A stretch of 63,735 bases of DNA, counting the filler, from Licmophora abbreviata (lineage: Eukaryota), in NCBI GenBank assembly GCA_900291995.1. It is 30 parts of 30 records of this genome, joined end to end, with 100 filler letters (N's around TTAATTAATTAA, not from the genome) between each part and the next. Parts side by side here need not be neighbours in the genome. Positions count along the whole stretch, not along the records: positions 59,626 to 62,066 come from OLMU01006423.1; 29 more parts are not named here. One strand, 5' to 3'. The notes below the pieces were generated by a model. That model worked only from the letters and a program-made list of their open reading frames with translations. It was not told the DNA's origin and made no database searches. The translations under genes and the position numbers were made by a program. Shown here in pieces: positions 3,345 to 62,066 of this stretch; position 1 is the stretch's first letter, and every line of letters begins with the position of its first letter.

Positions 3345-3499
3345 GCTGGCGGTTCCGAAGCTTGCCTATCCTATCATGTGAAAGGGATGTGTAATTCGGA
3401 TTGCCGGCGGCGCGCCGATCACCGGGCCCATACCACAGAGGAGGACGCAGCACTCTTAGAGTGGTGCCGACAGTGGTATGTCCCTCCCCCCCCCTCTAG
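3345..3499 (+). CDS. gag: 3' end of Gag-like ORF1 of YR retrotransposon family A (CCCH-type zinc finger)
   Basis: Translates as ACLSYHVKGMCNSDCRRRADH..DAALLEWC, homologous to the end of ORF 31816-32667. Reaching TAG 3497-3499 needs one extra C in the C9 run at 3486-3494. Confidence 0.75.
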
Positions 3500-4820
3500 G
3501 AGGGAGGCGGGAGGGGGCAGGGCATTCTTGCTCTGCCGCCTCTGACGCCGCCCCCTGTACCAGCCTCACCATCGACACGCACCCAACCACGAAAACGAAA
3601 CCACGCATCGATGAAACAGGGCTCTCAGGAGGCCGAGATACCACTTAATTCTCTACGTAAGTACATGTTGCGAGACTCACAACTATTTTCTAGTCAAGGC
3701 TGGAAACGGTTTGTCCAGCAGCGTCAGGGGATCGGCGACATAGGGCGACTCGACATCGTCCATCCTGCCAAGCATCTCCTTCACCATCTCTCCACCAAGG
3801 GGGCACCAGTGCTCTTCACCACACCCCCCTGGGATCCACATCGAATACACGCAGCCGCCGTCCGCGGCCCCCATCAATCGGCCATTGAACACGAAGATTT
3901 CTTACGTCAAGAAATGGTCGACATGATACTACGACAACAATGGGTGGTGCTACCGTACGAATCGGTTAAGGCACTACCTGGGCTCCGACTTAGCCCTATC
4001 GGCGTCGTTCCGCAGCGAGATCGTCGCCCACGAACGATCGTTGATTACACCTTTCATGGTGTCAATGATGACACTGTACCCTTAGCTCCCGCCGAAGCCA
4101 TGCGTTTTGGTCAAGCTTTCCAACGCCTCCTGGTGGACATCGTCAACGCCGACCCTAGGCATGGCCCAGTCCACCTATGCAAAATCGACATTTCAGACGG
4201 TTTCTACCGGATCAAGCTGCGAGCTGAGGACGTCCCCAAGCTTGGAGTCAGTTTCCCGTCCGAGGTGGCCGGAGAACACATTATTGCCTTCCCCTTAGTC
4301 TTACCCATGGGGTGGGTCAGTTCCCCGCCGTATTTCTGTGCGGCTACGGAGACCGTGGCCGATATCACCAACCAACGCATTGAACGGGGATACCGTCCGT
4401 CACCCCATCCGTTAGATCGCCTAGCGGATACTTCACCCAGTGAACCTCACCCGTCTGTGGCACCGAACATTCCTACCACGGCGGTCCCGAGCCCTACTGA
4501 CCAACCCCAGGCCACTGCTCGGCGGCGTCGTCCACTTGGCCGGTTCGAAGTATACATCGACGATTTTTGTGGGATCGCGCAGGGTGGTAGTAAGCGCCGG
4601 CGGCGAGTCCGACGCACACTTTTTCACACCCTCGACCAGGTGTTTCGTCCCCTTGCCCCCGGCGACCCAGTCACTCGGCAAGAACCGATTTCCATAAGAA
4701 GCTACGCAAAGGAGACGGCTGTTGGGCTACCCGGAAAGTATTACTCGGATGGCTGGTTGACACGGTCGCGGGAACCCTGCAGCTCCCACCTCATCGAGTT
4801 GAGCGCCTGTGGGAGATCCT
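3500..4820 (+). mobile_element. pol: YR (DIRS-order) retrotransposon family A, reverse transcriptase, partial
   Basis: LSPIGVVPQ, RTIVD, KIDISDGFY, LPMGWVSSP and VYIDDF motifs; frameshift near 4695 relative to the intact copy at 59762-62056. Confidence 0.92.
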
Positions 4821-4920: not shown

Positions 4921-5880
4921 AGCGGGCGCGGCCAAGGTGGAATTGTCTTCCCGCCGTCTCCGGAGGTACCACGCCGGCATCACCAACACACCGATACACC
5001 TTTCCTGTGGCGAGCCCCATTCCCAGGCGACATTACCGCCAAATTGGTCTCCTACACAAACCCCAAGGGCTCCATCACCAACTCGGATCTCGAGTTAGCG
5101 GCTACCGTCCTCCAACACGACCTCCTCTCCCAGCTGTACGATGTGCGCGAACGCACCGTGCACACCGCTACCGACAATACGCCTGCCTTCTACTGGCACC
5201 GGCGCGGCTCCATTTCGACCAATGCAGCTGCCGCCTATCTCCTCCGCCTCCAAGCCCTACACCAGCGATACCATCGCTACGTCCCGACTCTCTCCTACCT
5301 CCCTGGTCCCCTCAATGCTATGGCCGACGATGCTTCGCGGCTATGGCATCTTTCCGATTCAGAATTACTCACTCATTTTGATTCCCATTACCCACAGCTC
5401 CACCCGTGGCAGCTTTACCAGCACACCTCCGAGATGCTTTCTGCCACGATCTCCGCTCTGCGAAAAAGGCGGCCCGATCCGGAGTCGTTCCTTCTCGAGC
5501 CTCCGCCGCCGATTCCCACTGGCGGACGTGGACCAGCTTCTGTCAGTCCCTCCAGCTGGATCCTACCCTCTCGGAAATCGAAGATCCCAACACGCTCTTA
5601 CAAGTCTACATGCACCGCTACCGAACTGGCGCAATTGCCCCCCGTCACCAAGCTGTCCGAGCTCGAACAGTGGAGGACTCCCTACGGGCGGTCGGCCAAA
5701 CTTTTGCGTCCATGGGGGCCCGGGATCCACGCCTCAACTCTTTCGGCAAGATCGATTTCCGCCTCCAACGGCAGCTCGCCGGCTACAAGCGGCAAGACCC
5801 TCCACCGGACAGAGTCAAACCGATTCCACTCCAGATTATCCGGCACGTCCTCAGTACCGCCTTTGCCTCTTCATCAATAG
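4921..5880 (+). mobile_element. pol: YR retrotransposon family A, RNase H domain plus C-terminal extension overlapping the YR frame
   Basis: ITNSDLELAA, TDNTPA and NAMADDASR RNase H motifs. Confidence 0.9.
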
Positions 5881-6554
5881 GCAACCAAGCGGTCGCCGAC
5901 ATGATCGTGCTGGCTTTCTTTTTCCTCCTCCGGCCCGGGGAATACACCGGCGCCCCTTCCGATACAACCCCTTTCAAGCTCCAAGATGTACAGTTCTGGA
6001 TCGGCCGGCAACGCCACCAAGCGACAACCATCCCGGTTCCCGACCTGCCCCGTGTCACGTTCGCCACGCTCACCTTCACTACACAGAAGAACGGTGTGCG
6101 CAACGAAGTCATCGGTCTCGGTCGCAGCGGCGAGCCACTCCTGTGCCCCGTCCTTGCCCTCGCCCGTCGTGTCGCTCATCTGCGCCAATCCACAGCTCAT
6201 CTTGACACCCCACTGGCGACCTACTACGAACACGGTCGCCGCCATCCGGTCGCTCCGAAGGATATCACTGCAGCACTTCGTACAAGTACAACTGTTGTGG
6301 GACCCTCCGTGGGCTTCCTTCCGACCGACATTACTGCACGCTCCTTACGAGCCGGCGGCGCCATGGCACTTCTCTGCGCTGACGTCGATACCAGCCGCAT
6401 CCGCCTTGTAGGCCGCTGGCGCAGTGATGAAATGCTCCGGTACCTTCATGTCCAAGCTGAACCTCTCATGCGTGACTTCGCCCGACGCATGCTCCAAGGC
6501 GGCTCCTTCACTCTACTACCAAACCAACAGGTTCCTATTAATCCTGTTCTTTGA
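5398..6554 (+). CDS. Tyrosine recombinase of YR retrotransposon family A
   Basis: FFLLRPGEY, QKNG, RSLRAGGA and GRWRSDEMLRY motifs; first ATG is about 69 codons into the frame. Confidence 0.93.
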
Positions 6555-7421
6555 CTACATCAAACCATACTACAATACCAAAAAAAAAACACTACACAAA
6601 TCTCCCGCTGCTAGCGACACGCGCTGCAGCACCCACCCTCCCGAATACACTGGCCTACATCCAGCATGTNNNNNNNNNNNNNNNNNNNNNNNNNNNNNNN
6701 NNNNNNNNNNNNNTTAATTAATTAANNNNNNNNNNNNNNNNNNNNNNNNNNNNNNNNNNNNNNNNNNNNATCGGCCCCAGGGGGCTCACAGGCACGGCAC
6801 AGGCACGGTAGGCCCCCGATGGGCCCTCTATCGTTTGGCGCGCGCATGTTGTTATACCGTAGAATAGGGTTCGCACAGCATCACCCGATATGCAGTCCCG
6901 TAGGAAGTTTTGCGAAGGGCGATCCACCGCCGGAGACAATATCGAAAAGTATGAATCGTTGTAGAGGAAAAAACTGGCATTCGTGTCCGCTGAACACCGA
7001 ACATAAAATGCTTTTAGAGATTCTTCGTTGCTAAAGATAATTTTGGGTTCGTTTTGCGAGAAGGCGACACTTTCCTGATTTGATTCGATTTCACTAACAA
7101 AATGGTTGCTTTTGGAACGTTAAATGGCCGAACTTTTTATATAAGAGCGTTAAAAACCGTTAGAACAAAATGCGTCTGATGTGGGGGTGACTCCGAATCG
7201 AGACATCAATCCAACATAATGTGTCTGATTTCGGGGCTACACCCGAAGCGAGACATCAATATCCTACGCTAGCATTGACCACGCAATCGGCCCGTATTGT
7301 GCACAGTTAAGGAACGTCCCCAGATGCTCCGGCCGTTTCTGTTGTTTGCGGTGGACGGCGATGTAGTCGTCGTGGTGACAGCGTCATGCGAAGGAGAAGA
7401 ACCAGCACTAGCAGCAGCAAG

Positions 7422-7945
7422 GAGACTGAGGTCAGAGGTAGCGTTCATATCGAGTTGAGGAAGCTCGCCGTTGTTAATATTGCGAAGTGGAGACCGCTGA
7501 GAGTCACCGGGCACGTCAGTCGAACGCGTCTTCGCCATACCGTTGAATGACCGAGATCGTTTGAAACCGAAACGAGAAAATACACACAAAAAGTGAGAGC
7601 GAACAAATGAGATGCAAATTCCGTCGGGTCGTAGGAACTCGTAAAGTCACTACGACGTAGTGAAAATACGTGTGATCCTACAGGCGCAAGGAACCCGTGG
7701 AATTCCACACAAACAGTACAAAACAGAAAACCCTGTCGTGGAACCTGGTACGAAACGCACACGAATTGTGAATGCATCGCAAAACGATATTTCATTTCAT
7801 CACAATTTTTTTGCGAACGCAAAAACAACGCCGAGCACAACAAGGTAAAGTACAAACGATGATGCGTGTCCAAAGGAACGCGACGCTCCGCAAGACGTTC
7901 GTTGTGTGTCGCGCCTGCTTTCGGTGTTGTGATGATTAGCCCCAC
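7422..7945. repeat. Left arm of a long (about 0.5 kb) imperfect inverted repeat; partner at 9362-9834
   Basis: Reverse complement matches 9362-9834 with indels; both arms encode outward-facing MAKTRSTDVPG.SQRSPLRNINNGELPQLDMNATSDLSL. Confidence 0.95.
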
Positions 7946-8310
7946 CGTCGATCCTCGTAATGGCGTTCGTCCTCGTATGATGGTCCTCTCGTTTTTCTTG
8001 ACAAGCTCTTGTTCGCCTGTGCTTGTCCGTGCGTTCTGCTCGTTCGTTCGTTCGTTGTGTTCGCTGCTCCCTGCGCTTCATCCCACCAGCAAACACCAGA
8101 AGACAAATGCTTCTTGCCACCGTCGCGGCAGATCATCGGTTGCGACGAAGTCGTTGTGGTGGCCGCTTGTCATGTTTTTTGTCGCGCGTTGCCGTCAATC
8201 AGTTAGCTCGCCTTATTTTTTGTCATGACATTTTGTGTCGGATCCTGCGCAATGTTATGTACAGTGAATTTACGACGGTGTCCTATTTGACGATATTGCG
8301 TTTGTTATGT

Positions 8311-8556
8311 CTGAAAACGGGGTCCACCCCGAAATCAGCAACCAGACAGAGTTTCACCTTCAGGAATTGAGCGCAGTTTTGTCTGAAAACGGGGTTCACC
8401 CCAAAATCAGCAACTCATTCGATGCCTTCTGGCTCTGGGCTTGGGTTTTGTTGACTGAAAACGGGGTCAACCCCTTTTCCAGCAACTTTAGCGACATGTT
8501 TTTCCTGGGCTTGCGTTTTGTTGGCTGAAAACGGGGTCAACCCCGGATTCAGCAAC
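8311..8556. repeat. Four 32-bp palindromic repeats with 38-40 bp spacers
   Basis: CTGAAAACGGGGTnnACCCCnnnnnCAGCAAC at 8311, 8383, 8455 and 8525 (periods 72, 72, 70); two related inverted copies at about 7169-7210 and 7218-7260. Confidence 0.9.
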
Positions 8557-8630
8557 TGTATTGTTCCAACGACATTGGACTAACAGTACGTTGTTGTATT
8601 GTCTTTTGCTTGATCCAGCCACAGATCCAA

Positions 8631-9371
8631 ATGGTTGTGAAAACGAGAGGAGAGGGAACAAAACGCCCGACGGAGAAGAAAAAGACCAAGGCAAAGAACC
8701 TCGTTTCTCGTTCTAAAACGACAAGCGCGAAGAATGTACCGGTGGTATCCCCGGCCAGGTTGAGCGAAAGTAAGTCATATGTTGTTGTGTTTCCAGCGTT
8801 GGGTGTTGGTCAGAGTGCCCAGTTGTTCGTTGACGACAAGCAATGCGACGAGTACTGGGAGCAGCTTGAGGGGGTTGGTAAAACGCGACAATTGTTTGCG
8901 AATTTGGAAAGTGCGGTATGGGCGTTGAATCAGTACAACAGGCTTGCTGGAGTCCAACAGGCAACGTTGACATGTGACGCCAGCGACAACGAAGCTACGG
9001 GACCGGAAGTGCAGGACGTTTTGTATCCGAAGCATCCTGATACTCTGTCAAAAAAAGCATTGGAGGAAGAAGGGATTACTGTTGTGGACGAAGAAGTTTT
9101 GTTGGCAGAAGTGAAAGGCAAGCAAGTGGAAACGACAGCTGACAACATTGCGAAGCACGAAAAACACAATGATGAAATCTTTTTTGTCAGTGGATTTCTC
9201 TCCAATCTGTTTGTTCTTGGATCTGTTTTTGGTTGTTGCTGTGTGCTCTTCGTCACTCGATGCTGTCCGACTTCGTCGTGCCTTGAGTCTGCGATCAAAC
9301 CTTGCTTCCGTTTCTTGTTTTCGTTTGTGGTCCCTGTTTCGCTTGATCGTCCTGTAACGTTGTGGGGCTAA
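8631..9371 (+). CDS. Hypothetical protein; basic N-terminus, 3' part probably not coding
   Basis: ORF from ATG 8631; protein-like composition to about 9175, then T-rich low-complexity sequence. Confidence 0.4.
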   Translation: MVVKTRGEGTKRPTEKKKTKAKNLVSRSKTTSAKNVPVVSPARLSESKSYVVVFPALGVGQSAQLFVDDKQCDEYWEQLEGVGKTRQLFANLESAVWALNQYNRLAGVQQATLTCDASDNEATGPEVQDVLYPKHPDTLSKKALEEEGITVVDEEVLLAEVKGKQVETTADNIAKHEKHNDEIFFVSGFLSNLFVLGSVFGCCCVLFVTRCCPTSSCLESAIKPCFRFLFSFVVPVSLDRPVTLWG

Positions 9372-30784: not shown

Positions 30785-32667
30785 GCGCTGGCGGCACGAG
30801 TAGCGGCGGCCTCAGCGCATGACATACCGTTGGCGATGATACAGCATTGCAGGGCGCCGGGTGCGGAAGATGCTGGGGTGATTCAGGTCTTCCACCGAGT
30901 CACGCGGTTCCCTATTACAGTGGTCGGAGCACCGGAGCCATGGGATGGCAACACGTACGCCATCGTCGGGGACATCGTGCAGCAGCAATTCGTCCTCGCC
31001 CCTTTTCCCGACGGTAACAGCAACCTGGCACCTCAAGGGACCTACGTGATGTCAGACGACGAGATGCTGGCCAGCGTAGGCATGGCACCAGATGGTTTGA
31101 TTCCATTTGGCGAAGGAGACGAGGTGGTAGAGGTGCGGACGCGCTTATCTACCTTCGTCCCATTCGAGTATGTACCTTTGCTGTTGCCCGTGGCCTTGCC
31201 GCCCAAGGCAGCGTTCCAGCGAGTGCTATTGGCAGCACGCGCCAGTAACCAGGTCGCAGCGTGCCGTCCGCTCTTGGATTTCTTGAAAGTGGCGGCGACG
31301 GCGATCGACGCCAACCCACAATTTTCTGCGGTTTCGCGTTACTGGCCGGCGCTGCCTCAGCCACCGAACGCGGCCCTCATCCGCTTCTTCGAACGACGAG
31401 TACGCCACGACCTACCCGGCTGGAAGCAAGCCGAAGGGCCCACTGCTGCCACGTTGCAGCCGGTCATATCGGCCATCGATGGCCTTACGGCAGAGCAGCG
31501 CCAGCAGCGTCTGGACTCGAAGGCCAGGCAGCAGGCGACAGACAGGGGGAAAACCCCAGTACAGTTCTACGGTGTGCATGGGCTTACCAAGCTCATGCGC
31601 ATTTGCCAGGTTGCGCAGGAGTCAGCACTCCCACCTCTTTGGTCTCAGTTAGCCCGTGTGCCGAAGACTGGTCGTCTCACCACGGTTCAGAACGTGGTCG
31701 ACGAGCAGCGAGCGGCACTCGGGGTCTATTTCGAAGTGCCTGTGTCTGTGTCTCTGGTTTCGAAACTCACTAGCTTGAGTTTCGCCGGGCCGGAGCGAAC
31801 TCGGACGACGTCACGTTGGGCATTCAACCCTTTTTGTTCGGCCTGCCGACCCCTCAGCAAGCGGAGCAGGTGGCACACAGGGCAGCCCTATACCGCCACA
31901 TCCATGGGGGCGAAGGCGTTCCGTCTTTAGCGGACACCCTGGTCTTGGAGGCACCGGACGATGTCAGAGCAGCTACTACCTTGCAAGCGGTCCAGCACTC
32001 GCTGGACGCGACTCGTTCAGTCATGTCGGCCATCCTAGGGATGGCCCATCCGATCGTTGCGTACCTCACCAGCACGCGTCAGGCCTTGGATGTGTGTGCC
32101 AGCGAACTGGCCGTACAGGCGCAGCAGCAGCCCACTCTACCGCTGGACTTACAGCGGTACATTCAGGTCGAGATCGCCCATTGGTTTAAGATGCAGGAGC
32201 GCGCCCACATGCCAGTACCCTTCATGGCCAAGCCGGTTGTGTATGAGGCCGCCAAGGGCGCCCATTTCTGGCGTTACAGCTTGCCGATGGCATTACAGCC
32301 CACACCAGTCCCGGCTCCAGCGCCTCTACCTGCCCCAGCACCAACGACCGCCGGTCAGCCGTCGGGATCAGCACAGCCGCCGGCCGCGCCGGCACAGAAC
32401 ATCGTCCGCAACATGCAGCTCGATTCCCGCTTCCGTGATGTCAAGAGCCGCCCTAACTGTCGTGCGCGAGCCATCCGCAGGAGATGCCAGGATCAGGGCA
32501 TAGCACTTCCTCGCGGCGCGAGCGGCAACCTTCGCTGCTTGTCCTACCATATCGTGGGACAGTGCAATGAAAGGTGCGGCAATGCCGCTGACCACCACAA
32601 CGAGCACCCGGAGGCGGACCAGGCTGCTTTGTTAGAGTGGTGCGAAACTAACTGGCGTCCTGAATAG
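30785..32667 (+). mobile_element. gag: YR retrotransposon family B, Gag-like ORF1 (frameshift near 31795), C-terminal CCCH finger
   Basis: ORFs 30830 and 31816 join; CLSYHIVGQCNERCGNAADH; directly precedes a DIRS-type RT. Confidence 0.8.
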
Positions 32668-33678
32668 GACGTCGGCAATGGCCGAGTGCTCGGGGGCACT
32701 CGCCAAGAGCCATTCACCTCACCGTCGCCTCGTGCGACGGCACCGCCACCCCCGCAGGCGGAGAGTCTTAGTAGTAGTAATCAGCAACGGACCGGGGCCC
32801 GCACGCGGCGGGCCTCAGCCATTGCCAGTAATCACCTTAATGATAAATTAGGTAAGAGTATACGTTTAAACTCGCAACTTCTACGCCGTCACGGTCTCAC
32901 TACGCTCCTACGCATTCGACAGGGAGCTGGTGATTGGGGCGACTTACAGACCGTGCGCGACCACCCCGCGCACCGGCTGTTAAGCGCCTGCAAAGCTCGT
33001 GGCGTCCCAATCACCCTCGCCGACGCTCCCTGGTCGTCTGACGAGAAGATATCAAGCATCACACGCGGACCTCATAAATCCGCCTACGAAAATTTAGAGT
33101 TCCTACGCGAGGACATGGCAGACATGGTGGACAAGGGATACTGGGTGGTCCTACCGTTTGAAGCAGTACAACACACACCCAGTCTACGCATTAGTCCTAT
33201 TGGTGTTGTACCCCAAGCGGCCCGGCGATCCAGGCCTATTGTGGATTACACCTACTCTGGCATCAATGATGTGACCCAACCCAACGCCCCCATCGAATCC
33301 ATGCAGTTTGGTCGCGCACTGGACCGGTTGCTCCGCCGCATCCTGCTCGCAAACCCCAATCGAGGCAAGGTGTACCTGTTGAAGGTCGATCTAGCCGACG
33401 GCTTCTACAGGATGCACCTCAACCCAGATATGGCTCCATCCTTGGCCGTCGCCTTCCCGAATCTCCCAGGCGAGCCGCCGCTAGTTGCCATCCCCACACG
33501 TTTACCAATGGGCTGGAAGCTCTCCCCTCCGCTCTTTTGCACCGCTACGGAAACAGTAGCCGATGTCACTAACCGGCAGATCTTGCAGCGCCATGTCGCG
33601 CCAAGCCACGCGCTTGACGCACTTGCCTCCAGCCGGCCGCCGCCCCGAGCACTGAGCCCTCAGATCGCCTCGTCCGAT
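32668..33678 (+). mobile_element. pol: YR retrotransposon family B, reverse transcriptase N-terminal part, in frame with gag
   Basis: ISPIGVVPQ, RPIVDY, KVDLADGFY and LPMGWKLSP. Confidence 0.9.
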
Positions 33679-49257: not shown

Positions 49258-50013
49258 CGAGTTTCCTTACAGAAATGGCAACAGATCCTGGGGGAGCTCC
49301 GTTCAATGGCCCTCGCCGTCCCTGGGGCCCGAGGCCTCTTCAGCCATTTGCAGGAAGCCCTCAACTCACAGAAGAAGGGGCACATCCGCGTCTCCAAGCA
49401 CGTCCGAGCTACCCTCGATGATTTCCGCTGGCTCGCCTCCAGTCTTGAGACTCGCCCGACCCGATTGCGGGAGCTTGTGGCCACACCCCCGGTCGTCCAT
49501 GGGACCACCGACGCCAGCGGCCGCGGCCAAGGCGGCATCATCTTCCCACCGTCACGGGAGGTCCCACGCCGTCACCGCCATCCTACCGATACCCCGTTTG
49601 TCTGGCGGACACCATTTCCTACCGACGTCACGAACAAACTGGTCTCCTACACCAACCCCCAAGGTACCATCACCAACTCAGACCTGGAGTTGGCCGCCAC
49701 GGTCGTCCAACACGACCTCCTGGCCCAGCTCTACGACGTGCAAGAACGTACAGTACACACTGGTACTGACAACACGCCGGCTTTCCATTGGCACCGACGG
49801 GGCTCCATCTCCACCAACTCCGCCGCGGCCTATCTGCTTCGCCTCCAAGCCCTACACCAACGACACCACCGATATGTTCCTACACATTCATATCTTCCCG
49901 GTCCTCTCAACTCCATGGCTGACGATGCATCGCGGCTGTGGCACCTCTCTGACGACGACCTACTCACCCATTTTGATGCCCATTATCCGCAGCGCCTCCC
50001 GTGGCAGCTTTGA
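49258..50013 (+). mobile_element. pol: YR retrotransposon family A, RT thumb and RNase H
   Basis: TTDASG, NSDLELAA, TDNTPA and MADDASR; TGA at 50011-50013. Confidence 0.9.
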
Positions 50014-51149
50014 CACCCCACCTCACCGATGCTTTCCGCCACGATCTCAGCGCTGCGCAAGCAGCGGCCAGAGCCGGCATCGTTCCTTCAAGAGCCAGCG
50101 CCGCCGATTCCCACTGGCGTACCTGGACCACCTTCTGCCAGTCCCTCCACCTGGATCCTTCCCTCGCGGAAATCGAAGATCCTACCTCCATCCTCCAAGT
50201 CTATATGCAACGGTATCGGACTGGAGCGATTGCCCCCCGTCACCAGCCAGTCCGCGCTCGAACAGTGGAGGACTCCCTCCGCGCGGTTGGCCAAACCTTT
50301 GCGTCCATGGGGGCCAACGACCCCCGCCTCAACACTTTCGGCAAGATTGACTTCCGGCTTCAACGCCAACTAGCCGGATACAAACGTCAGGACCCACCGC
50401 CTGACCGCGTCAAGCCAATCCCGCTACAAATCCTCCGCCATGCCTTAGCTGTCGCCTTCGCCAACCACTCCATCGGCAACCAAGCGACCGCAGACATGAT
50501 TGTCCTGGCCTTCTTCTTCCTCCTCAGGCCAGGCGAATACACAGGTGCTCCCTCCGACACGACACCTTTCCGACTCCAAGACGTCCAGTTCTGGATTGGC
50601 CGCCAACGACTCCAAGCGACAACCATCCCCGTGGCCGACCTTCCCCGCGTTACCTTTGCCACGCTCACCTTCACTACACAGAAGAACGGTGTGCGCAACG
50701 AGGTCATCGGCCTCGGTCGCAGCGGCGAGCCACTTCTGTGTCCCATCCTCGCCCTCACCCGTCGCGTCGCTCATCTTCGCCAATCCACAGCCTCACTTGA
50801 TACACCTCTGGCGACCTACTTCGAACAAGGTCGCCGCCACCCCGTCGCCCCCAAGGACATCACTGCAGCCCTCCGTACCAGTACAACTGTGGTGGGTCCA
50901 TCCGTGGGTTTCCTTCCTACCGACATCTCCGCGCGCTCCTTACGAGCAGGCGGCGCCATGGCCCTCCTCTGTGCTGACGTTGACACCAGCCGGATCCGCC
51001 TTATTGGCCGCTGGCGTAGCGACGAGATGCTCCGATACCTTCACGTCCAAGCTGAACCTCTCATGCGTGACTTCGCCCGACGCATGCTCCAAGGCGGCTC
51101 CTTTACTCTACTTCCAAATCAACAGGTTCCTATTAATCCTGTTCTTTGA
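49993..51149 (+). CDS. Tyrosine recombinase of YR retrotransposon family A (second copy)
   Basis: Same motifs as 5398-6554; colinear. Confidence 0.93.
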
Positions 51150-51259
51150 CTACATCAAACCACACTACACTACAAAAAAAACATCACAAATCTCCCGCTG
51201 CTAGCGACACGCGCTGCAGCACCCACCCTCCCGAATACACTGGCCTACATCCAGCATGT

Positions 51260-51745
51260 GGTGCAGCTACCTGGCACTACGGTCAGGTAGCTAGGTGGTG
51301 GCGCATACGCCATCGTAAATCTCCGATTACCACCATGTGCGTCCTTCCTCTCTAACTAGCAGGTATGCACCTATCACGCGCGTTACGCGCGAACATGCCT
51401 AGATTGAGGTCGGACGAGGGAACACGGACTAGCCGAAGCGGCGTGAGCCGCTGTAGGCTGGGAAGTGGCACCGAGCAGGCCGGCAGCCTCGGGCGGGTCT
51501 TGGGAAGGGCAATAGTCCCAACGCATTAGCGATTGGGAATTATGCCTCACCAACACCCTCGGTGATTGAAAGTGTGAAAAGCACTCATTCTTTGCCGGCT
51601 CAAGACGGAGCCGAGTGTCGAGACGGAGGAACTGTGTACGACGGTTCCTCTCTCCTAGAATAATTTTTAAGTGCCCACCCGCATCCACCCGGTGCAGCTA
51701 CCTGGCACTACGGTCAGGTAGCTAGGTGATGGCGTATTACGCCAT
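51260..51745 (+). repeat. 3' terminal split-direct-repeat region (B1 51260-51313, B2 51691-51745)
   Basis: GGTGCAGCTACCTGGCACTACGGTCAGGTAGCTAGGTG.TGGCG..TACGCCAT twice, 377 bp apart. Confidence 0.85.
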
Positions 51746-56388: not shown

Positions 56389-56422
56389 ATCTTTTTGGCA
56401 AAGTAAGATTACTGACCAGTAG

Positions 56423-56501
56423 GAGCCGTATGAGTGAAGATGCTCACGTACGGTTTTGGACCAGAGGGGTGAGGCTGGTAACAGTCCCTCGACTGGGCCA
56501 T
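56423..56501 (+). ncRNA. Group II intron domains V and VI and 3' splice site
   Basis: GAGCCGTATGAGTGAAGATGCTCACGTACGGTTT (domain V); CCAG..TCGaCTGG stem with bulged A; ends in AY. Confidence 0.92.
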
Positions 56502-56602
56502 TATCGCATCCTGGAGCTGTAAGTGGTTCCAAGGGTCTGGCTGTTCGCCAAGTAACGCGGTACATGATCTGAGTTTAGAACGTCGTGAGACAGTTTGGTC
56601 CC
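56502..56602 (+). rRNA. rnl: 101-nt exon of organellar (probably mitochondrial) LSU rRNA, peptidyl-transferase region
   Basis: CATCCTGG..CCAAGGG..GGCTGTTCGCC..TTTAGAACGTCGTGAGACAGTTTGGTCCC matches 23S domain V, about E. coli 2512-2612. Confidence 0.93.
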
Positions 56603-57071: not shown

Positions 57072-59525
57072 AGGCAATCATCGACCACTACCAAGCGAGA
57101 GGTTTTAACGTTACCCGTTTTCATACGGATGGTGAGTTTGAATGCATTCGTACTGACATTCTACCAGCGATTCTCAATGTGACCGCCGCAGACGATCATG
57201 TTGGAGAGGTTGAAAGGTCCATTCGTACGATCAAAGAACGCACCCGCACCACCATCCATGGGCTTCCATACAGACGTCTACCTGCACTACTGATTAAGGA
57301 AGTAGTGAAGCATGCAGTCAAGAATCTCAACCTTTTCCCAGCGAAGAACGGCATTTCAACGACTCTCAGCCCCCGAAACATCGTCACCGGATTACCAAAC
57401 CCCGACTACAATAAGATGAAGCTCGAGTTCGGTTCATACGTTCAAGTCTTTGAAGACAACAACCCGTCCCCCGGCACCAATTCGACCGCCACGCGCATGA
57501 CCGGCGCCATAGCACTCAATCCCACAGGTAACGAACAGGGCGATTATTTCTTTATGTCGCTCACCACCGGCGCGCGCCTCAGCAGGCGACAATGGACAGT
57601 GCTTCCCATCACCGCCGAGGTGATCAGAACAGTGGAGGCCATGGCAGCCGCACAAGGACAGCCCCGAATTCACGGTGGCGTCATGAAATATGAGTGGAGA
57701 CCGGCCATTCCAGTCGAGGACGACGAACAACCGGCAGATGAACATGATGACCTCGATGAGGAAGCCGATGACGATCCGGTCGACACAGAGGCAGTGGAGT
57801 TCCCAGCAACAGACGATGTCGCGGAAGATACCATTTTCGACGAAGACGAAGGAGCGCAAGTGCCGCCGGAAGCGGACATTTTCGACGAAGACGAAGGAGC
57901 AGAGGAAACCATTTTCGACGGTAGTGATGGCGACAACGCAGACGACGAAGGAGCGCAGGAGCCTGTTTTCGACGACGCAGAAGAAGCCGATGACACGCTG
58001 GGAGCTGTCGACGAGGCCGTCCCAGACGAGGAGCAGGCACACACCGTTATTGTGGAAGAAGGTGTTGCTGACGGCCATGGGTACAATCTACGTGGCGACA
58101 GGGCGCGAAGCTACAGTCATCGATACGACCACCAAATTGGCAACCCAGCGAACACGGAGAGCAATTCCAGTGGAGTACAGCTACTTCAGAACGCCATACA
58201 TGAACTTCCAAACGATCCCCACTCCCTACGTACCCATGTTTTCAGTCAGGTTTTCACACAAATGTCGGCGAGTGCTGGTATAAAGAAACACGGACAGGAC
58301 GCGGTAGACGCCCTTTTCAAAGAATTTGCCCAACTCGATGACAAAGACGTTTTCGAACCAATGGACGCTACCATTTTAACAAGCGACGAAAAGAAAGACG
58401 CCCTGCGAGCAGTCAACCTGATTAAGGAGAAACGGTCCGGGAAGCTGAAAGGGCGCACGTGCGCGGACGGGAGACCCCAACGCACCCTCTATACCAGAGC
58501 CGAGACGACCTCCCCGACCATATCGACAGATGCTCTCATGATCTCCCTGATGATTGACGGTCTGGAGAAGCGCGATGTCGCCACCGCAGATGTGGTGGGT
58601 GCGTATTTACATGCAGACATGGAGGATTTCGTTTTGATGCGACTCACCGGTGCCGCGGTGGACATCATGTGCGATGTGAACCAAAAATATGTCCCATTCG
58701 TCACTACCGAGAACGGGAAGCGCGTCCTTTACGTGCGGCTTCTAAAAGCTTTGTATGGATGCGTCAAATCTGCGTTGCTCTGGTATGATTTGTTCGTGAC
58801 CACACTGAAAGGTAGAGGTTTCGTGATCAACCCATATGATCCGTGTGTGGCAAATTGCACCATAAACGGCAAACAGTGTACCATCGGATGGTACGTCGAC
58901 GACAACAAGATATCACATGTGGACCCGGCCGTCGTTACAGAAATCATCGAATTGATCGAATCGCGTTTTGGAAAAATGACTGTCACCCGAGGTAAGCAAC
59001 ACACGTTCCTGGGTATGGACATCACTTTTAACGACGATGCCAGTGTCACAATCACCATGAAGGACTACATCCGTGAGGCCGTGAGCGATTTTGGCGAAGA
59101 TGTATCGAGGCCCGCCGCGACGCCCGCTGGCAAGGACCTGTTTGAGATCGAAGAGACCGCTGAACCCCTGGAGAAGACCAGGAGCGAGTTGTTCCACAGT
59201 ATCGTCGCGAAACTGCTGTATGTTTCGCAGCGTGGCCGTAGCGACATTTCGCCGACAATCGCTTTCCTTTGCACGAGAGTGTCCCGCAGCACTGACCAGG
59301 ATTGGAGAAAGCTGAAGCGTCTACTACAGTACCTGAACAACACCATTGACCTTGCTTGCACCATTGCAGCTGACAACCTATCGAGCCTAATGACATGGGT
59401 GGATGCATCCTATGCTGTACACGACGACATGAAGAGTCATACTGGCGGTGCATTCTCTCTCGGCCGTGGCGCGATTATGTGTAAGTCCACCAAACAGAAA
59501 TTGAATACGAAGAGCTCGACTGAAG
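57072..59525 (+). mobile_element. pol: Ty1/copia (CoDi-like) pol: integrase, acidic repeat linker, RT, start of RNase H
   Basis: HVGEVERSIRTIKER, LYGCVKSA, YVDDNK and WVDASYAVH. Confidence 0.96.
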
Positions 59526-59625: not shown

Positions 59626-60142
59626 AGGATGATCATGTCAGCGATGGCTTGATTACCAGGGGAGTCGTCGTTAGCAAAGGCAATGTTCAGGACATGCCGG
59701 ATGATCTGGAGGGGGATAGGCTTGACCCGATCCGGTGGTGGATCGAGCCGTTTATAGCCCGCTAGTTGGCGCTGGAGGCGGAAGTCGAGTTTGCCATACG
59801 TGTTGAGCCGTGGGTCCGGGGCCCCCATGGACGCAAAGGCTTGGCCCACGGCGCGGATGGAGTCTTCCACCGTTCGAGCTCGGACCGGTTGGTGACGGGG
59901 CGCAATTTGCCCGATTCTATATCGGTGCATATAGACTTGGAGGATGGTAGTTGGATCTTGGAGCGCCGAGAGGGAAGGATCCAGCTGGAGGGACTGGCAA
60001 AACTGGGTCCAGGTGCGCCAGTGTGAGTCAGCGGCGGAGGCTCGTGAAGAAACGACGCCGGATCGGGCCGCTGCTTGCGCAGCGCGGAGGTCGTGGCGGA
60101 AAGCATTGACGACGTCGGATGGCAGAGCTGCCACGGACGGCG
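59626..60142 (-). CDS. Tyrosine recombinase N-terminal part (third family-A-like copy)
   Basis: ADSHWRTWTQFC..DPPPDRVKPIP homologous to the other copies. Confidence 0.9.
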
Positions 60143-62066
60143 CTGTGGATACAAAGAGTCAAAATGCGTGAGAAGTTCGCTGTCAGAGAGGTGCCAGAGC
60201 CGGGAAGCATCGTCCGCCATGGCGTTGAGGACGCCGGGGAGATAGGAGTGTGTTGGAATATAGCGATGATGTCGTTGGTGCAAAGCTTGTAGTCGTAGGA
60301 GGTAGGCCGCTGGTTCGTTGGTGGATACGGAGCCGCGGCGGTGCCAGAAGAAAGCTGGGGTGTTGTCGGTGCCAGTGTGGACGGTTCGCTCGCGCACATC
60401 GTAGTGCTGCGCGAGGAGATCGTGCTGGATGATCGTGGCGGTCAGCTCGAGGTCGGAGTTCGTGACGGTGCCGGTCGGGTTGTCGTATGTGACCAGACGG
60501 GAAGCGATGTCGGCTGGGAAGCGTGCACGCCAGACGAAAGGCGTGTCTTGATGGGAGTGGTGTCGTAGGCGTACGGCGGGGTCCGGCGGTAGGATGACGC
60601 CGCCTTGGCCTTGGCCGCTTGCGTCGGTCGTTCCATGGATGCAAGGATCGGTGGCCACCAGTTCACGGAGGCGTGTCGGCCTTGATTGGAGGCTGGCGGC
60701 GAGCCAGCGAAAATCATCGAGGGTGGCATGGACGTGACGGGAGACGCGGATGCGACCGGATACGGGCTGGCGCAGCGCGGCCTGTAAATGACTGAACAGA
60801 CCGCGGGCTCCGGGAATCGCGAGGGCCATGGCGCGCAGCTCTCCCAAGACCTGGTGCCATTTCCGGAGTTGAACTCGTTTTTGCGTCGGTGGGATCGAGC
60901 GCAGGATCTCCCAAAGGCGCTCGACACGGTGTGGAGGTAGCTCGAGGGTGCCGGCCACGGTATCGATGAGCCACCCCAGTAGGACCTTGCGTGTGGCCCA
61001 GTGGCCATCCCCCTTGCGGAGTTTCTTGATGGAGATAGGCTCTTGACGCGTTGGCGGGTCATCAGGAGCGAGCGGTCGGAAAACCTGGTCGAGGGTGTGG
61101 AAAAGAATTCGCCGGATACGTCGTCGGCGTTTTCGGCCGCCCTGGGCAATGCCGCAAAAATCGTCGATGTAGACCTCGAACAGACCGAGCGGTCGGCGAT
61201 GCTTGGCGGTGGGAAGGGAGTCGCTACTTTCCAGTGGGACAGCTGAGAGGTTGTCGCTTGGTGGCGCTGCTGCTTCGTCGGCTGGTTCTGTTTCGGCGAG
61301 ACGGTCAAGACGATGAGGCGGCGGGGAGGCGTTTCGATCGATGCTCTGATTGGCGACATCCGCGACGGTCTCGGTGGCGGCACAGAAGAAAGGGGGGCTG
61401 CTCACCCACCCCATGGGTAGCACGAGCGGGAAAGCCACCACATGCTCGCCTGCAATCTCGGATGGGAAGCTGACTCCGAGCTTGGGGATGTCGTCCGCCC
61501 GTAATTTAATACGATAGAAGCCGTCGGCAATGTCAATCTTGCATAGATGAACCGGCCCGTGTCTGGGGTCGGCGTTGACGATCGCCACTAGGAGTCGTTG
61601 GAACGCTTGGCCAAAGCGCATTGCTTCGGCTGGCGCGAGTCGTAGGGTATCATCGTTGACTCCGTGGAACGTGTAGTCAACGATGGTACGAGGTCGGCGG
61701 TCCCGTTGGGGGACTACACCGATGGGGCTGAGCCTCAGCCCGGGTAGCGCTTTAACCGCGTCGTACGGTAGCACTACCCATTGATGGCGGAGAATCATGT
61801 CCGCCATTTCTTGTCGGAGGAAGTCGGCGTGGTCGTGGGCCGACTTGTGGGGGCCGCGTAGGACGGCTGCGTGGATTCGATGGTGATCCCAGGGAGGCGT
61901 TGTAAATATGACAGGTGCTCCGGTCTTGGAGAGATACCGGAGTAATCCTGTGGCTGGGTGGTGGATGTTGAGAGCTCCGAAGTCGCCGTGGCTGCGGCGT
62001 TCAGTGACGAAAGATCGCCACCCTTGGCTAGCTAAAAGACGAGAATCTCTCAACATGTACTTACGT
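59762..62066 (-). mobile_element. pol: YR retrotransposon family A-like, intact RT-RNase H ORF
   Basis: 764-aa ORF with YIDD, TTDASG and MADDASR. Confidence 0.95.

Follow-up and report, generated by a model that had tools for sequence, protein, structure and literature searches.

In retroviruses, unspliced RNA serves both as genome and as gag-pol messenger, and spliced RNA expresses a downstream gene (env; pol in foamy virus). In Drosophila copia and barley BARE, splicing removes pol sequence and favours Gag. For the DIRS order, recombinase expression has so far been an open point, to which a conserved intron with the borders of RT-RNase H would bring a concrete and testable mechanism. In Ngaro and other DIRS-order elements the ORFs encoding RT/RH and tyrosine recombinase (YR) overlap extensively (PMC6681497, PMC9210276), and the family described here shares both this overlap and the gene order. 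The portions of the DIRS-order literature consulted state no mechanism for a start-less overlapping YR, whereas in this family conserved splice sites would supply one. We propose that the start-less overlapping YR gene is expressed because splicing switches the message from RT to recombinase, and we judge it likely, from the comparison of related loci, that in this gag / RT-RNase H / YR element RT-RNase H is a spliceosomal intron and splicing chooses the enzyme. A literature search found no published account of splicing out RT-RNase H; Poulter and Butler (2015) and the Goodwin and Poulter papers lie outside that search and may bear on novelty.

The window, the whole stretch of 63,735 nucleotides analysed here (Licmophora abbreviata, assembly GCA_900291995.1), consists of 30 short contigs concatenated with linkers of the form N..TTAATTAATTAA..N, five of which carry pieces of an Ngaro-type YR retrotransposon with the order gag, RT-RNase H, YR, placed by its architecture and not by a tree. 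Family A is represented by the copies at 59626..62066 (minus strand; RT-RNase H region and YR start, with the pol frame intact over 767 codons), 3345..4820 (plus strand; gag end, leader, donor and RT start, with its frame disrupted at a C-run near 3480 and again close to the 3′ end), 4921..6669 (plus strand; RNase H end, acceptor and YR) and 49258..51745 (plus strand; RNase H, acceptor, YR and 3′ region). Family B is represented by the copy at 30785..33678 (plus strand; gag with one internal frame defect, leader, donor and RT start). As expected for the DIRS order, AlphaFold2 models searched with Foldseek indicate an RT with RNase H, and a recombinase model that matches Cre suggests a tyrosine recombinase in place of a DDE integrase. 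The split direct repeats of Ngaro, A1-[ORFs]-B1-A2-B2, were found in the relative L056 (A1 2017-2139 = A2 7805-7927; B1 7665-7806 = B2 7946-8087; 100% identity), the window contigs being fragmentary. A methyltransferase domain is absent after RNase H, which is followed in 28/29 representatives only by a tail of 100-168 codons with no Pfam match.

Relatives abound in metagenomes from aquatic habitats (4834 protein clusters at E <=0.001), and a scan of viral_contigs yielded no relative. Two proteins, P0099 and P0291, derive from transcriptomes. Related elements contaminate even bacterial genome bins. The loci compared below, metagenomic ones included and some of them defective copies, were grouped into lineages at <85% nucleotide identity.

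Conserved splice signals at the borders of RT-RNase H

The predicted intron on contig 59626-62066 (60143..62064, minus strand) is 1922 nt long, in agreement with the length of about 1.9 kb first claimed for it, and encodes the whole RT-RNase H fold. Its 5′ splice site GTAAGT (62059..62064, minus strand) follows the last exon base, C at 62065, and is in phase 1 of pol. Only 2 nt separate this donor from the contig end, so the contig has no upstream exon; the leader is present on two window contigs only, 3345-4820 (leader 3500-3656, followed by GTAAGT at 3657-3662) and 30785-33678 (leader 32668-32851, followed by GTAAGA at 32852-32857), both on the plus strand. The original prediction had named phase-1 donors C|GTAAGT at 62064 (minus) and 3657 and G|GTAAGA at 32852, which are indeed there (codons CGT AAG and GGT AAG), and its coordinates for CTCAC, both CAGs, the YR ATG and the intron were likewise accurate.

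At the homologous RT-start site, a donor NGT[AG][AC]G in phase 1 occurs in 43/43 covering sites from 34 lineages, which are mutually related, so that binomial figures overstate their independence. Over these lineages the donor is GTAAGT (21), GTGAGT (8), GTACGT (3) or GTAAGA (2), and the one further donor locus in genome_contigs also has the motif (1/1). Whereas these bases are constant, what they encode is not: Lys, Glu or Thr is followed by Tyr, Leu, Phe, Cys, Ser or Met. Compared with background codon use over 17,732 pol codons, the donor Gly is GGT in 30/30 cases (background 24%), Lys is AAG in 23/23 (55%), Glu is GAG in 8/8 (48%) and Thr is ACG in 3/3 (18%). In the codons on either side, Leu after the donor is TTR in 14/14 cases (24%) and Leu before it ends in A, which gives AG|GT, in 25/33 (20%). 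Elsewhere, the donor motif was met at 3/18,893 other in-phase codons.

The conserved 3′ splice site is a CAG at 60143..60145 (minus strand), the Gln codon of pol 'YPQ', whose G opens a YR-frame codon; on the plus strand it lies at 5395-5397 in copy 4921..6669 and at 49990-49992 in copy 49258..51745. This codon is CAG in 51/56 lineages and CAA in 0, against a background CAG share of 42% of Gln codons, and the remaining 5/56 lineages have an in-phase AG at most 3 codons away. The genome_contigs loci carry the acceptor CAG in 4/4 cases. The YR residue built on the acceptor G is not fixed (Ala 20, Glu 13, Gly 9, Asp 8, Val 1), and the constraint is therefore on the base and not on the residue. Conservation at synonymous pol positions had been put forward as a test of these signals, and for the donor and the first CAG it is borne out by the fixed choices at 43/43 donor sites and by a first CAG that is never CAA (51/56 CAG). 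The relatives exclude chance for the donor and the first CAG, and at the level of sequence the observation is confirmed as real and far beyond chance. Both borders also fit a U2-type GT-AG intron, with 5′ GTRAGT and 3′ YAG at fixed positions in 34/34 donor and 51/56 acceptor lineages.

Two further elements of the original prediction stood in part. It placed two CAGs in each copy (ending at 5397/5412, 49992/50007 and 60143/60128); all the positions are right, but conservation extends to the first CAG only. The second one (60128..60130, minus strand; pol Trp-Gln) is in the right phase and specific to family A. Since the pol residue after Trp varies (Arg, Lys, Glu, His, Gln), this CAG is compatible with chance, and it is at most an alternative acceptor. 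The CTCAC proposed as branch-point-like is found where predicted (5368, 49963 and 60168..60172, the last on the minus strand) but is not conserved, and it is compatible with chance because its A is kept in only 21/51 lineages. TTTRAY at -20 to -15 is better conserved: in the window it reads TTTGAC (60158..60163, minus strand; pol Phe-Asp), fits the branch-point pattern YTNAY, keeps its A at -16 in 44/51 lineages and may be the branch point. The same TTTGAC provides the TGA by which the YR frame is shut ahead of the acceptor. Pyrimidines make up a share of 0.68 between -20 and -1, and these bases, like TTTRAY, double as pol codons.

The 641 residues encoded in the pol frame at 60143-62065 (minus strand) gave an AlphaFold2 model with a pLDDT of 89.1, whose best Foldseek matches were the RTs of CaMV, HERV-K, MLV, foamy virus, Ty3 and HIV-1 (E 2.9e-15, 550-740 aligned columns); Pfam RVT_1 scored 20-28 bits on RT, under its cutoff of 29.6. 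According to this model, the intron encodes exactly the RT-RNase H fold and its borders coincide with the fold borders. Joining the donor to the CAG puts the leader in the YR frame, as had been claimed: leader-to-YR reading is open in 34/35 donor-acceptor pairs, and the intron length, of about 1.9-2.35 kb, equals 2 modulo 3 in 34/35 pairs.

Retroelements keep strong 5′ splice sites for roles in RNA stability, export and polyadenylation. GTRAGT might likewise bind U1 snRNP so as to stabilise or export the RNA or to suppress premature polyadenylation, with no productive splicing, and such a reading would agree with the retained sites known in retroelements and with a case for splicing that is built on comparison, no junction RNA having been seen. 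We regard it as very unlikely, since it leaves YR expression unexplained and does not account for the in-phase CAG, just as fixed, at the very point where the YR frame opens, for a joined frame that is open in 34/35 pairs, or for intron borders that match those of the RT-RNase H fold. One public run on 59626-62066, from a library of unstated kind and with no bearing on splicing, contained 19 short contigs carrying adapter tails, of which one crosses the acceptor unspliced, and there were no joints or loose end at the splice sites. Two other runs matched nothing in this segment.

The recombinase frame and its start

How is a recombinase without a start codon expressed? The YR frame runs through 5398-6551 and 49993-51146 on the plus strand in copies 4921..6669 and 49258..51745, and the 3′ exon of the remaining copy (59626..60142, minus strand) contains the N-terminal part of YR, ended by the contig end. 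The full-length YR (49977-51146) was modelled by AlphaFold2 with a pLDDT of 91.3 and matched Cre recombinase (E 1.4e-6, TM 0.55/0.65, 349 aligned columns), then Xer and phage integrases. Judged by this model, the downstream ORF folds like Cre and is by its fold a tyrosine recombinase. A confident helix begins at residue 14; over the 5 residues that derive from the intron end, pLDDT is <50. Pfam Phage_integrase matched YR at E 0.058 in 4/16 proteins, a PDB profile search with YR returned 0 matches, and sequence-only family searches with YR and the pol tail gave nothing usable.

In all loci carrying both, the YR frame is -1 relative to pol, and it is shut by a stop upstream of the junction, located 5 codons away in 28/56 lineages; in L056 and L060 the YR-frame TAA overlaps the acceptor AG. 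The original prediction had described a YR frame lacking ATG until about codon 69, and this is what the window contains, the first ATG being codon 77 counted stop-to-stop, or codon 69 if counting starts at the GTG. In 50/56 lineages the stretch between the upstream stop and +25 codons has no ATG; in 6/56 lineages and in several database proteins one follows the junction by a few codons. The three window copies had also suggested a switch of coding frame some 80 nt past the CAGs and hence a frameshift, a reading rejected because the relatives show YR-frame conservation from the junction on.

Two ways of translating YR without splicing have to be weighed here. YR might come from its own transcript, or from internal initiation at an ATG, CTG, GTG or TTG 3 codons past the junction, with the donor serving otherwise. 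The pol Trp codon (TGG) forces an NTG in the YR frame at this point, an ATG lies nearby in 6/56 lineages, and some relatives have it there, including the transcriptome-derived P0099, which is called a complete ORF. Yet 50/56 lineages have no ATG, and the NTG does not keep an A as its first base, although pol leaves that position free to vary synonymously. Moreover, the site lies >4 kb into the RNA, the conserved YR-frame residues and the confident helix begin before or at the NTG codon, and the fixed CAG and donor would be unexplained; we thus find initiation at this site quite improbable.

Alternatively, programmed -1 ribosomal frameshifting near the pol/YR overlap could produce a Pol-YR fusion, the GT/AG motifs being incidental. 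The constant -1 relation of YR to pol and an ORF overlap typical of frameshift sites speak for it, as does P0192, a protein that reads from RNase H into YR in one frame, exactly at the Pro-Gln position, and from which a Pol-YR fusion may exist in some lineage. However, an X XXY YYZ heptamer is present in only 1/30 loci between -6 and +30 codons from the junction, at a position that is not conserved, and the TAA overlapping the AG in L056 and L060 leaves the YR frame no room upstream. Frameshifting would explain neither the conservation of a donor 1.9 kb upstream nor the fixed G of the CAG despite a varying YR residue, and its probability appears to us very low.

The pol frame also extends past the acceptor. 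In copy 59626..62066, a pol-frame tail of 126 codons (59765..60142, minus strand) overlaps the YR start and would be translated from unspliced RNA only; in copy 49258..51745 this tail is interrupted by a TGA at 50011-50013. Among 29 representatives, the pol frame stays open for at least 100 codons past the acceptor in all 29, and for exactly 112 codons in 18; in 26 the third frame runs for only 5-16 codons before a stop. Mean pairwise identity past the acceptor is highest for the YR frame (0.43), followed by the pol frame (0.38) and the third (0.28). On the evidence of these alignments, pol continues for about 112 codons into the 3′ exon, and the exon is therefore read in two frames.

The gag stop and the predicted products

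Gag and pol lie in one frame, separated by a single stop, in 31/31 loci where the junction is visible, and the gag ORF exceeds 600 codons in 17 of them. In the window, the stop is a TAG at 3497-3499 (plus strand) in family A and at 32665-32667 (plus strand) in family B, the latter in the same frame as pol. The upstream ORF has 690-785 codons in all full-length relatives and no Pfam match, 'Gag' being assigned by position only. The sequence xx-xx-GG(C/T) follows the gag stop, and hairpins start about 7 nt after it in many loci (mean z-score -1.2, 5/27 below -2); RNAalifold on 27 sequences after the stop found no consensus structure.

Because the leader mostly lacks an ATG and follows the gag stop in the same frame, the product of the spliced RNA is probably a Gag-leader-YR readthrough fusion, with an expected size of about 130 kDa. 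Many leaders being without ATG, YR expression from the spliced RNA needs a second step that we infer, readthrough of the gag stop. The original prediction, that unspliced RNA would make Pol and spliced RNA leader-YR, agrees with the sites and frames found by comparison, except that the spliced product is more likely Gag-leader-YR. It had also pointed to genomic copies missing exactly the intron, but no processed gag-leader-YR copy of this kind was found among 86 related loci. Nor was a leader-YR protein form found among the best 120 of 1852 matches to the window YR, the best 120 of 1985 matches to P0099 or the best 150 of 4834 cluster representatives.

A model of expression by splicing can be drawn as follows. 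Full-length RNA would be both genome and Gag messenger, and readthrough of the gag stop on this RNA would give Gag-Pol, that is, RT-RNase H with a tail of about 112 codons. The GT-AG intron of 1.9-2.35 kb would begin after the first base of the codon that opens the RT fold and end at the CAG, the last-but-tail Gln codon of RNase H. Once it is removed, the leader that separates the gag stop from RT would continue into the 3′ exon in the -1 frame, which is predicted to encode the Cre-like recombinase without its own start codon. The spliced RNA would then produce Gag and, via the same readthrough, Gag-leader-YR. In this manner, splicing would decide which enzyme is attached to Gag, and the first 112 or so codons of the 3′ exon would be translated in two frames.

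We also lean, with less assurance, towards a broader reading, in which a widespread protist Ngaro-type clade makes Gag-RT-RNase H by intron retention and Gag-recombinase by intron removal, with one readthrough stop and about 112 codons selected in two frames, and which may be a general answer for the DIRS order. Such a mechanism would tie the amounts of the replication enzyme and of the integration enzyme to host splicing, and would add a naturally occurring case of a long exon used in two frames. It also suggests an annotation rule for such elements: ...AG|GTRAGT ... YPQ-CAG|.

Comparison with known systems

The window family is like retroviral subgenomic splicing in its division of labour between unspliced and spliced RNA. 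Unlike in retroviruses, the donor is placed after gag inside the pol frame, the predicted intron consists of the very sequence that codes for RT-RNase H, and the downstream gene, which lacks a start codon, would be fused in frame to upstream coding sequence. As in copia and BARE, an intron within the coding region would shift the protein ratio; however, those elements only truncate to Gag, whereas the window family would swap RT-RNase H for YR. In the gammaretrovirus MLV, gag-pol is made by stop-codon readthrough. The likeness lies in the single in-frame stop between gag and pol (31/31 loci), often with a hairpin about 7 nt downstream, while in the window family readthrough is predicted only and would serve two alternative downstream modules. 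Finally, CDKN2A (INK4a/ARF) has a shared exon that is read in two frames. As there, one exon of the window family would be used in two frames set by upstream splicing, but in this mobile element the choice would be between intron retention and removal, and distant lineages keep the overlap of about 112 codons.

Copies of the element and their relatives

Retroelement pieces of one kind were found on five of the 30 contigs (1018–3244 nt) that make up positions 1–63735, joined by 100-nt N linkers with TTAATTAATTAA mid-linker. Because the window is a chain of contigs and not one genome stretch, features cannot be read across the linkers. The contig at 3345–4820 carries the gag end, the leader (the stretch between the gag stop and the RT start) and the RT start; those at 4921–6669 and 49258–51745 each contain the RNase H end and the whole downstream ORF encoding the tyrosine recombinase (YR); 59626–62066 holds, on the minus strand, RT-RNase H together with the beginning of that ORF; and 30785–33678 is a divergent copy (family B) with gag, leader and RT start. 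On 59626–62066 the predicted donor lies only 2 nt from the contig end and the leader is therefore absent. Two copies are defective: a TGA at 50011–50013 (contig 49258–51745) cuts the pol tail just past the Trp-Gln-Leu codons, and a C run at 3470–3500 (contig 3345–4820) takes the gag end out of the frame shared by the TAG and pol.

The original prediction was that splicing removes RT-RNase H as an intron to express YR, and all its coordinates proved correct. GTAAGT donors start at 62064 (minus) and 3657 and a GTAAGA donor at 32852, all three after the first base of a pol codon (CGT AAG or GGT AAG). CTCAC occurs at 5368, 49963 and 60172, and paired CAGs, 15 nt apart, end at 5397/5412, 49992/50007 and 60143/60128. 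The first ATG of the downstream ORF is codon 77, or codon 69 if counted from the GTG. With only three copies, of which two are nearly the same, chance could not be excluded from the window by itself.

Searches with the downstream ORF returned over 1800 relatives, each some 380 residues long, in a word-indexed protein collection, and 4834 cluster representatives at E ≤ 0.001 in an exhaustive search. A scan of metagenome contigs yielded 80 loci, many of about 6 kb with complete upstream genes, and prokaryote genome bins yielded six more, on contaminant contigs. Every locus with both genes has the downstream ORF in the −1 frame with respect to pol. Intron-less genomic copies, which the original prediction had proposed to look for, were not found among the 86 related loci. 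Several contigs of about 6.0–8.4 kb (L007, L008, L032, L050, L063, L074) are circularly permuted or contain multiple units, with YR followed again by gag and then pol; the unit of L050 is about 6.16 kb. This points to tandem arrays or to a circular form of the element. In locus L064, a YR ORF at 8001–9146 is preceded by the intron-end residues typical of these elements (FYLST), but the 8 kb before it showed no similarity to pol or gag; this copy may have been truncated or captured.

Other features of the window include a piece of bacterial-type, organellar-looking large-subunit rRNA (56487–56596, 87 bits; contig 40% GC), abutted by a group II intron domain match (56421–56498, 46 bits). The contig at 57072–59525 is spanned by an open frame of some 800 codons that has no relation to the YR element; from its translation, it looks like a Copia-type integrase and RT.

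Constraint at the predicted splice sites

The motif NGT[AG][AC]G occupies the same codon phase in 43/43 sites covering the position aligned with the Arg-Lys of the window. Merging sites at least 85% identical over at least 250 nt left 34 lineages, with GTAAGT in 21, GTGAGT in 8, GTACGT in 3 and GTAAGA in 2; 30 of them have G at −1 and 25 have A at −2. Lys, Glu or Thr stands at the second codon, and Tyr, Leu, Phe, Cys, Ser or Met at the third. Against a background of 17,732 pol codons from 29 representative loci, Gly is GGT in 30/30 (background 24%), Lys is AAG in 23/23 (55%), Glu is GAG in 8/8 (48%), Thr is ACG in 3/3 (18%), the Leu following the donor is TTR in 14/14 (24%) and the Leu preceding it ends in A in 25/33 (20%). 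Single-codon probabilities range from 6e-3 to 4e-19, values that overstate the case since lineages were taken as independent. Among 18,893 other pol codons, 3 have the motif in phase. Judged from these alignments, the constraint on the donor is not on the protein, as residues vary and synonymous codon use is fixed. The bases tolerated, namely R at +3, an occasional C at +4 and T or A at +6, with G invariant at +5 and AG ahead of the cut, follow the consensus of a U1-type 5′ splice site. Just before the donor, the leader ends (for example at 3642–3656) in (P)x(D/E)(D/E)L, conserved as protein in most lineages, unlike the remainder of the leader; it may be a shared peptide or a splicing enhancer.

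At the other end, 67 loci representing 56 lineages were available. The first CAG encodes the Gln of the conserved pol Tyr-Pro-Gln motif at the RNase H end; this codon is CAG in 51/56 lineages and CAA in none, CAG making up only 42% of Gln codons in these genes, and CAG is also found in four further loci from genome bins. The synonymous-site comparison proposed with the original prediction came out in its favour at the donor and at the first CAG. The five exceptions have an AG in the same phase no more than 3 codons away; in L056 and L060 the acceptor is TAAG, in which the TAA closes the downstream frame. A downstream-frame codon begins with the G of CAG, and the residue built on this G is Ala in 20, Glu in 13, Gly in 9, Asp in 8 and Val in 1; every G-starting class occurs, and therefore the constraint is on the base. 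Two proposed elements did not hold up over the relatives: the second CAG, where the pol residue after Trp varies, and CTCAC, whose A is present in only 21/51 lineages. Better kept is TTTRAY at −20 to −15 (pol Phe-Asp/Asn), a branch-point-like pattern that is also coding.

Reading frames and encoded proteins

When the base before GT was joined to the base after the in-phase AG, the frame from the leader into the downstream ORF was open in 34/35 donor-acceptor pairs; in the remaining pair, L044, a stop lies 58 codons into YR. Intron length is 1859–2354 nt and equals 2 modulo 3 in 34/35 pairs; L079, with an internal pol frameshift, is the exception. Upstream of the junction the downstream frame is closed by a stop, which in 28/56 lineages lies 5 codons from the junction and is made by the pol Phe-Asp/Asn codons. 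No ATG occurs from this stop to 25 codons past the junction in 50/56 lineages, and a canonical −1 slippery heptamer is present in only 1/30 loci. In P0192, a cluster representative of 360 aa, the RNase H C-terminus (...FPQ) runs into the YR N-terminus in one frame at Pro-Gln, as though the acceptor had gained one base; it could come from a lineage that makes a fused Pol-YR, or it could be defective.

The original prediction can be extended at the leader, which is in the same frame as gag with one stop between. The frame upstream of this stop is open, and the same as pol, in 31/31 loci with the stop inside the contig, 17 of which have a gag-like ORF of more than 600 codons; thus a single TGA, TAG or TAA separates gag and pol. 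After the stop come two codons and a GG(C/T), and family B in the window has the same gag-stop-leader layout, with TAG at 32665–32667. Leaders are 52–122 codons long, many without ATG. By this layout, the leader is not a free-standing ORF. The simplest reading is that Gag-Pol would be made by readthrough of the gag stop codon, and that the spliced RNA, with the same readthrough, would give Gag-leader-YR. Hairpins begin about 7 nt past the gag stop in many loci and are not statistically secure (mean z-score only −1.2), and RNAalifold on a MAFFT alignment gave no consensus structure after the stop. A hairpin closed by GGC...GCC, about 7–50 nt past the stop, is seen in L005, L012, L018, L032, L044, L046, L077 and other loci; its inner stems differ by locus with pairing kept (e.g. 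GGGGT/ACCCC, GGAGG/CCTCT, GGCGG/CCGCT), and it looks like a readthrough stimulator.

Past the acceptor, pol stays open for at least 100 codons in 29/29 representatives, its tail being exactly 112 codons in 18/29, and the third frame closes within 5–16 codons in 26/29. Over 98 gap-free columns, pairwise identity averages 0.43 for the YR frame, 0.38 for the pol frame and 0.28 for the third; in the first 24 codons past the junction pol is better conserved than YR. As the pol and YR frames are both open and conserved, the 3′ exon is dual-coding.

In a sequence library search RVT_1 scored below its threshold and Phage_integrase reached E 0.058, in 4/16 proteins. The 641 residues between donor and acceptor gave a confident model (pLDDT 89.1) that matched RT with RNase H of the retroviral type, from CaMV, HERV-K, MLV, foamy virus, Ty3 and HIV-1 (E down to 2.9e-15). 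Folding in this model is good from the N-terminal residues through the final helix, and therefore the intron borders are those of the RT-RNase H module. The model of the downstream ORF (pLDDT 91.3) matched Cre recombinase (349 columns, E 1.4e-6), with Xer and phage integrases next; it has a confident helix from residue 14, and pLDDT is below 50 in the five N-terminal residues that the intron end encodes. Because the L056 element is bounded by split direct repeats (A1...B1-A2-B2) and the element has no room for a methyltransferase, we file it as Ngaro-type.

Splicing as a proposed route to YR expression

The observation itself is real, and the proposed splicing mechanism, with the corrections made here, is in our judgement its best explanation and likely to be right. 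A search of public sequencing runs listed no RNA data set containing the element. No leader-YR protein was present among the matches listed (the best 120 of 1852, 120 of 1985 and 150 of 4834). We found no description of splicing as a route of YR expression in the full-text literature covered, which leaves aside the main reviews of these elements, and none in the portions covered of PMC7192593, PMC8547959, PMC6681497, PMC4157794 and PMC9210276. In those portions, the RT/RH and YR ORFs are said to overlap often (PMC6681497, PMC9210276), and the splicing treated in PMC7192593 is that of an artificial marker intron.

Alternative splicing is an already known kind of strategy in retroelements. What is unusual here is that the RT-RNase H gene would itself be the intron, that the product is probably a Gag fusion, and that the shared exon is read in two frames.
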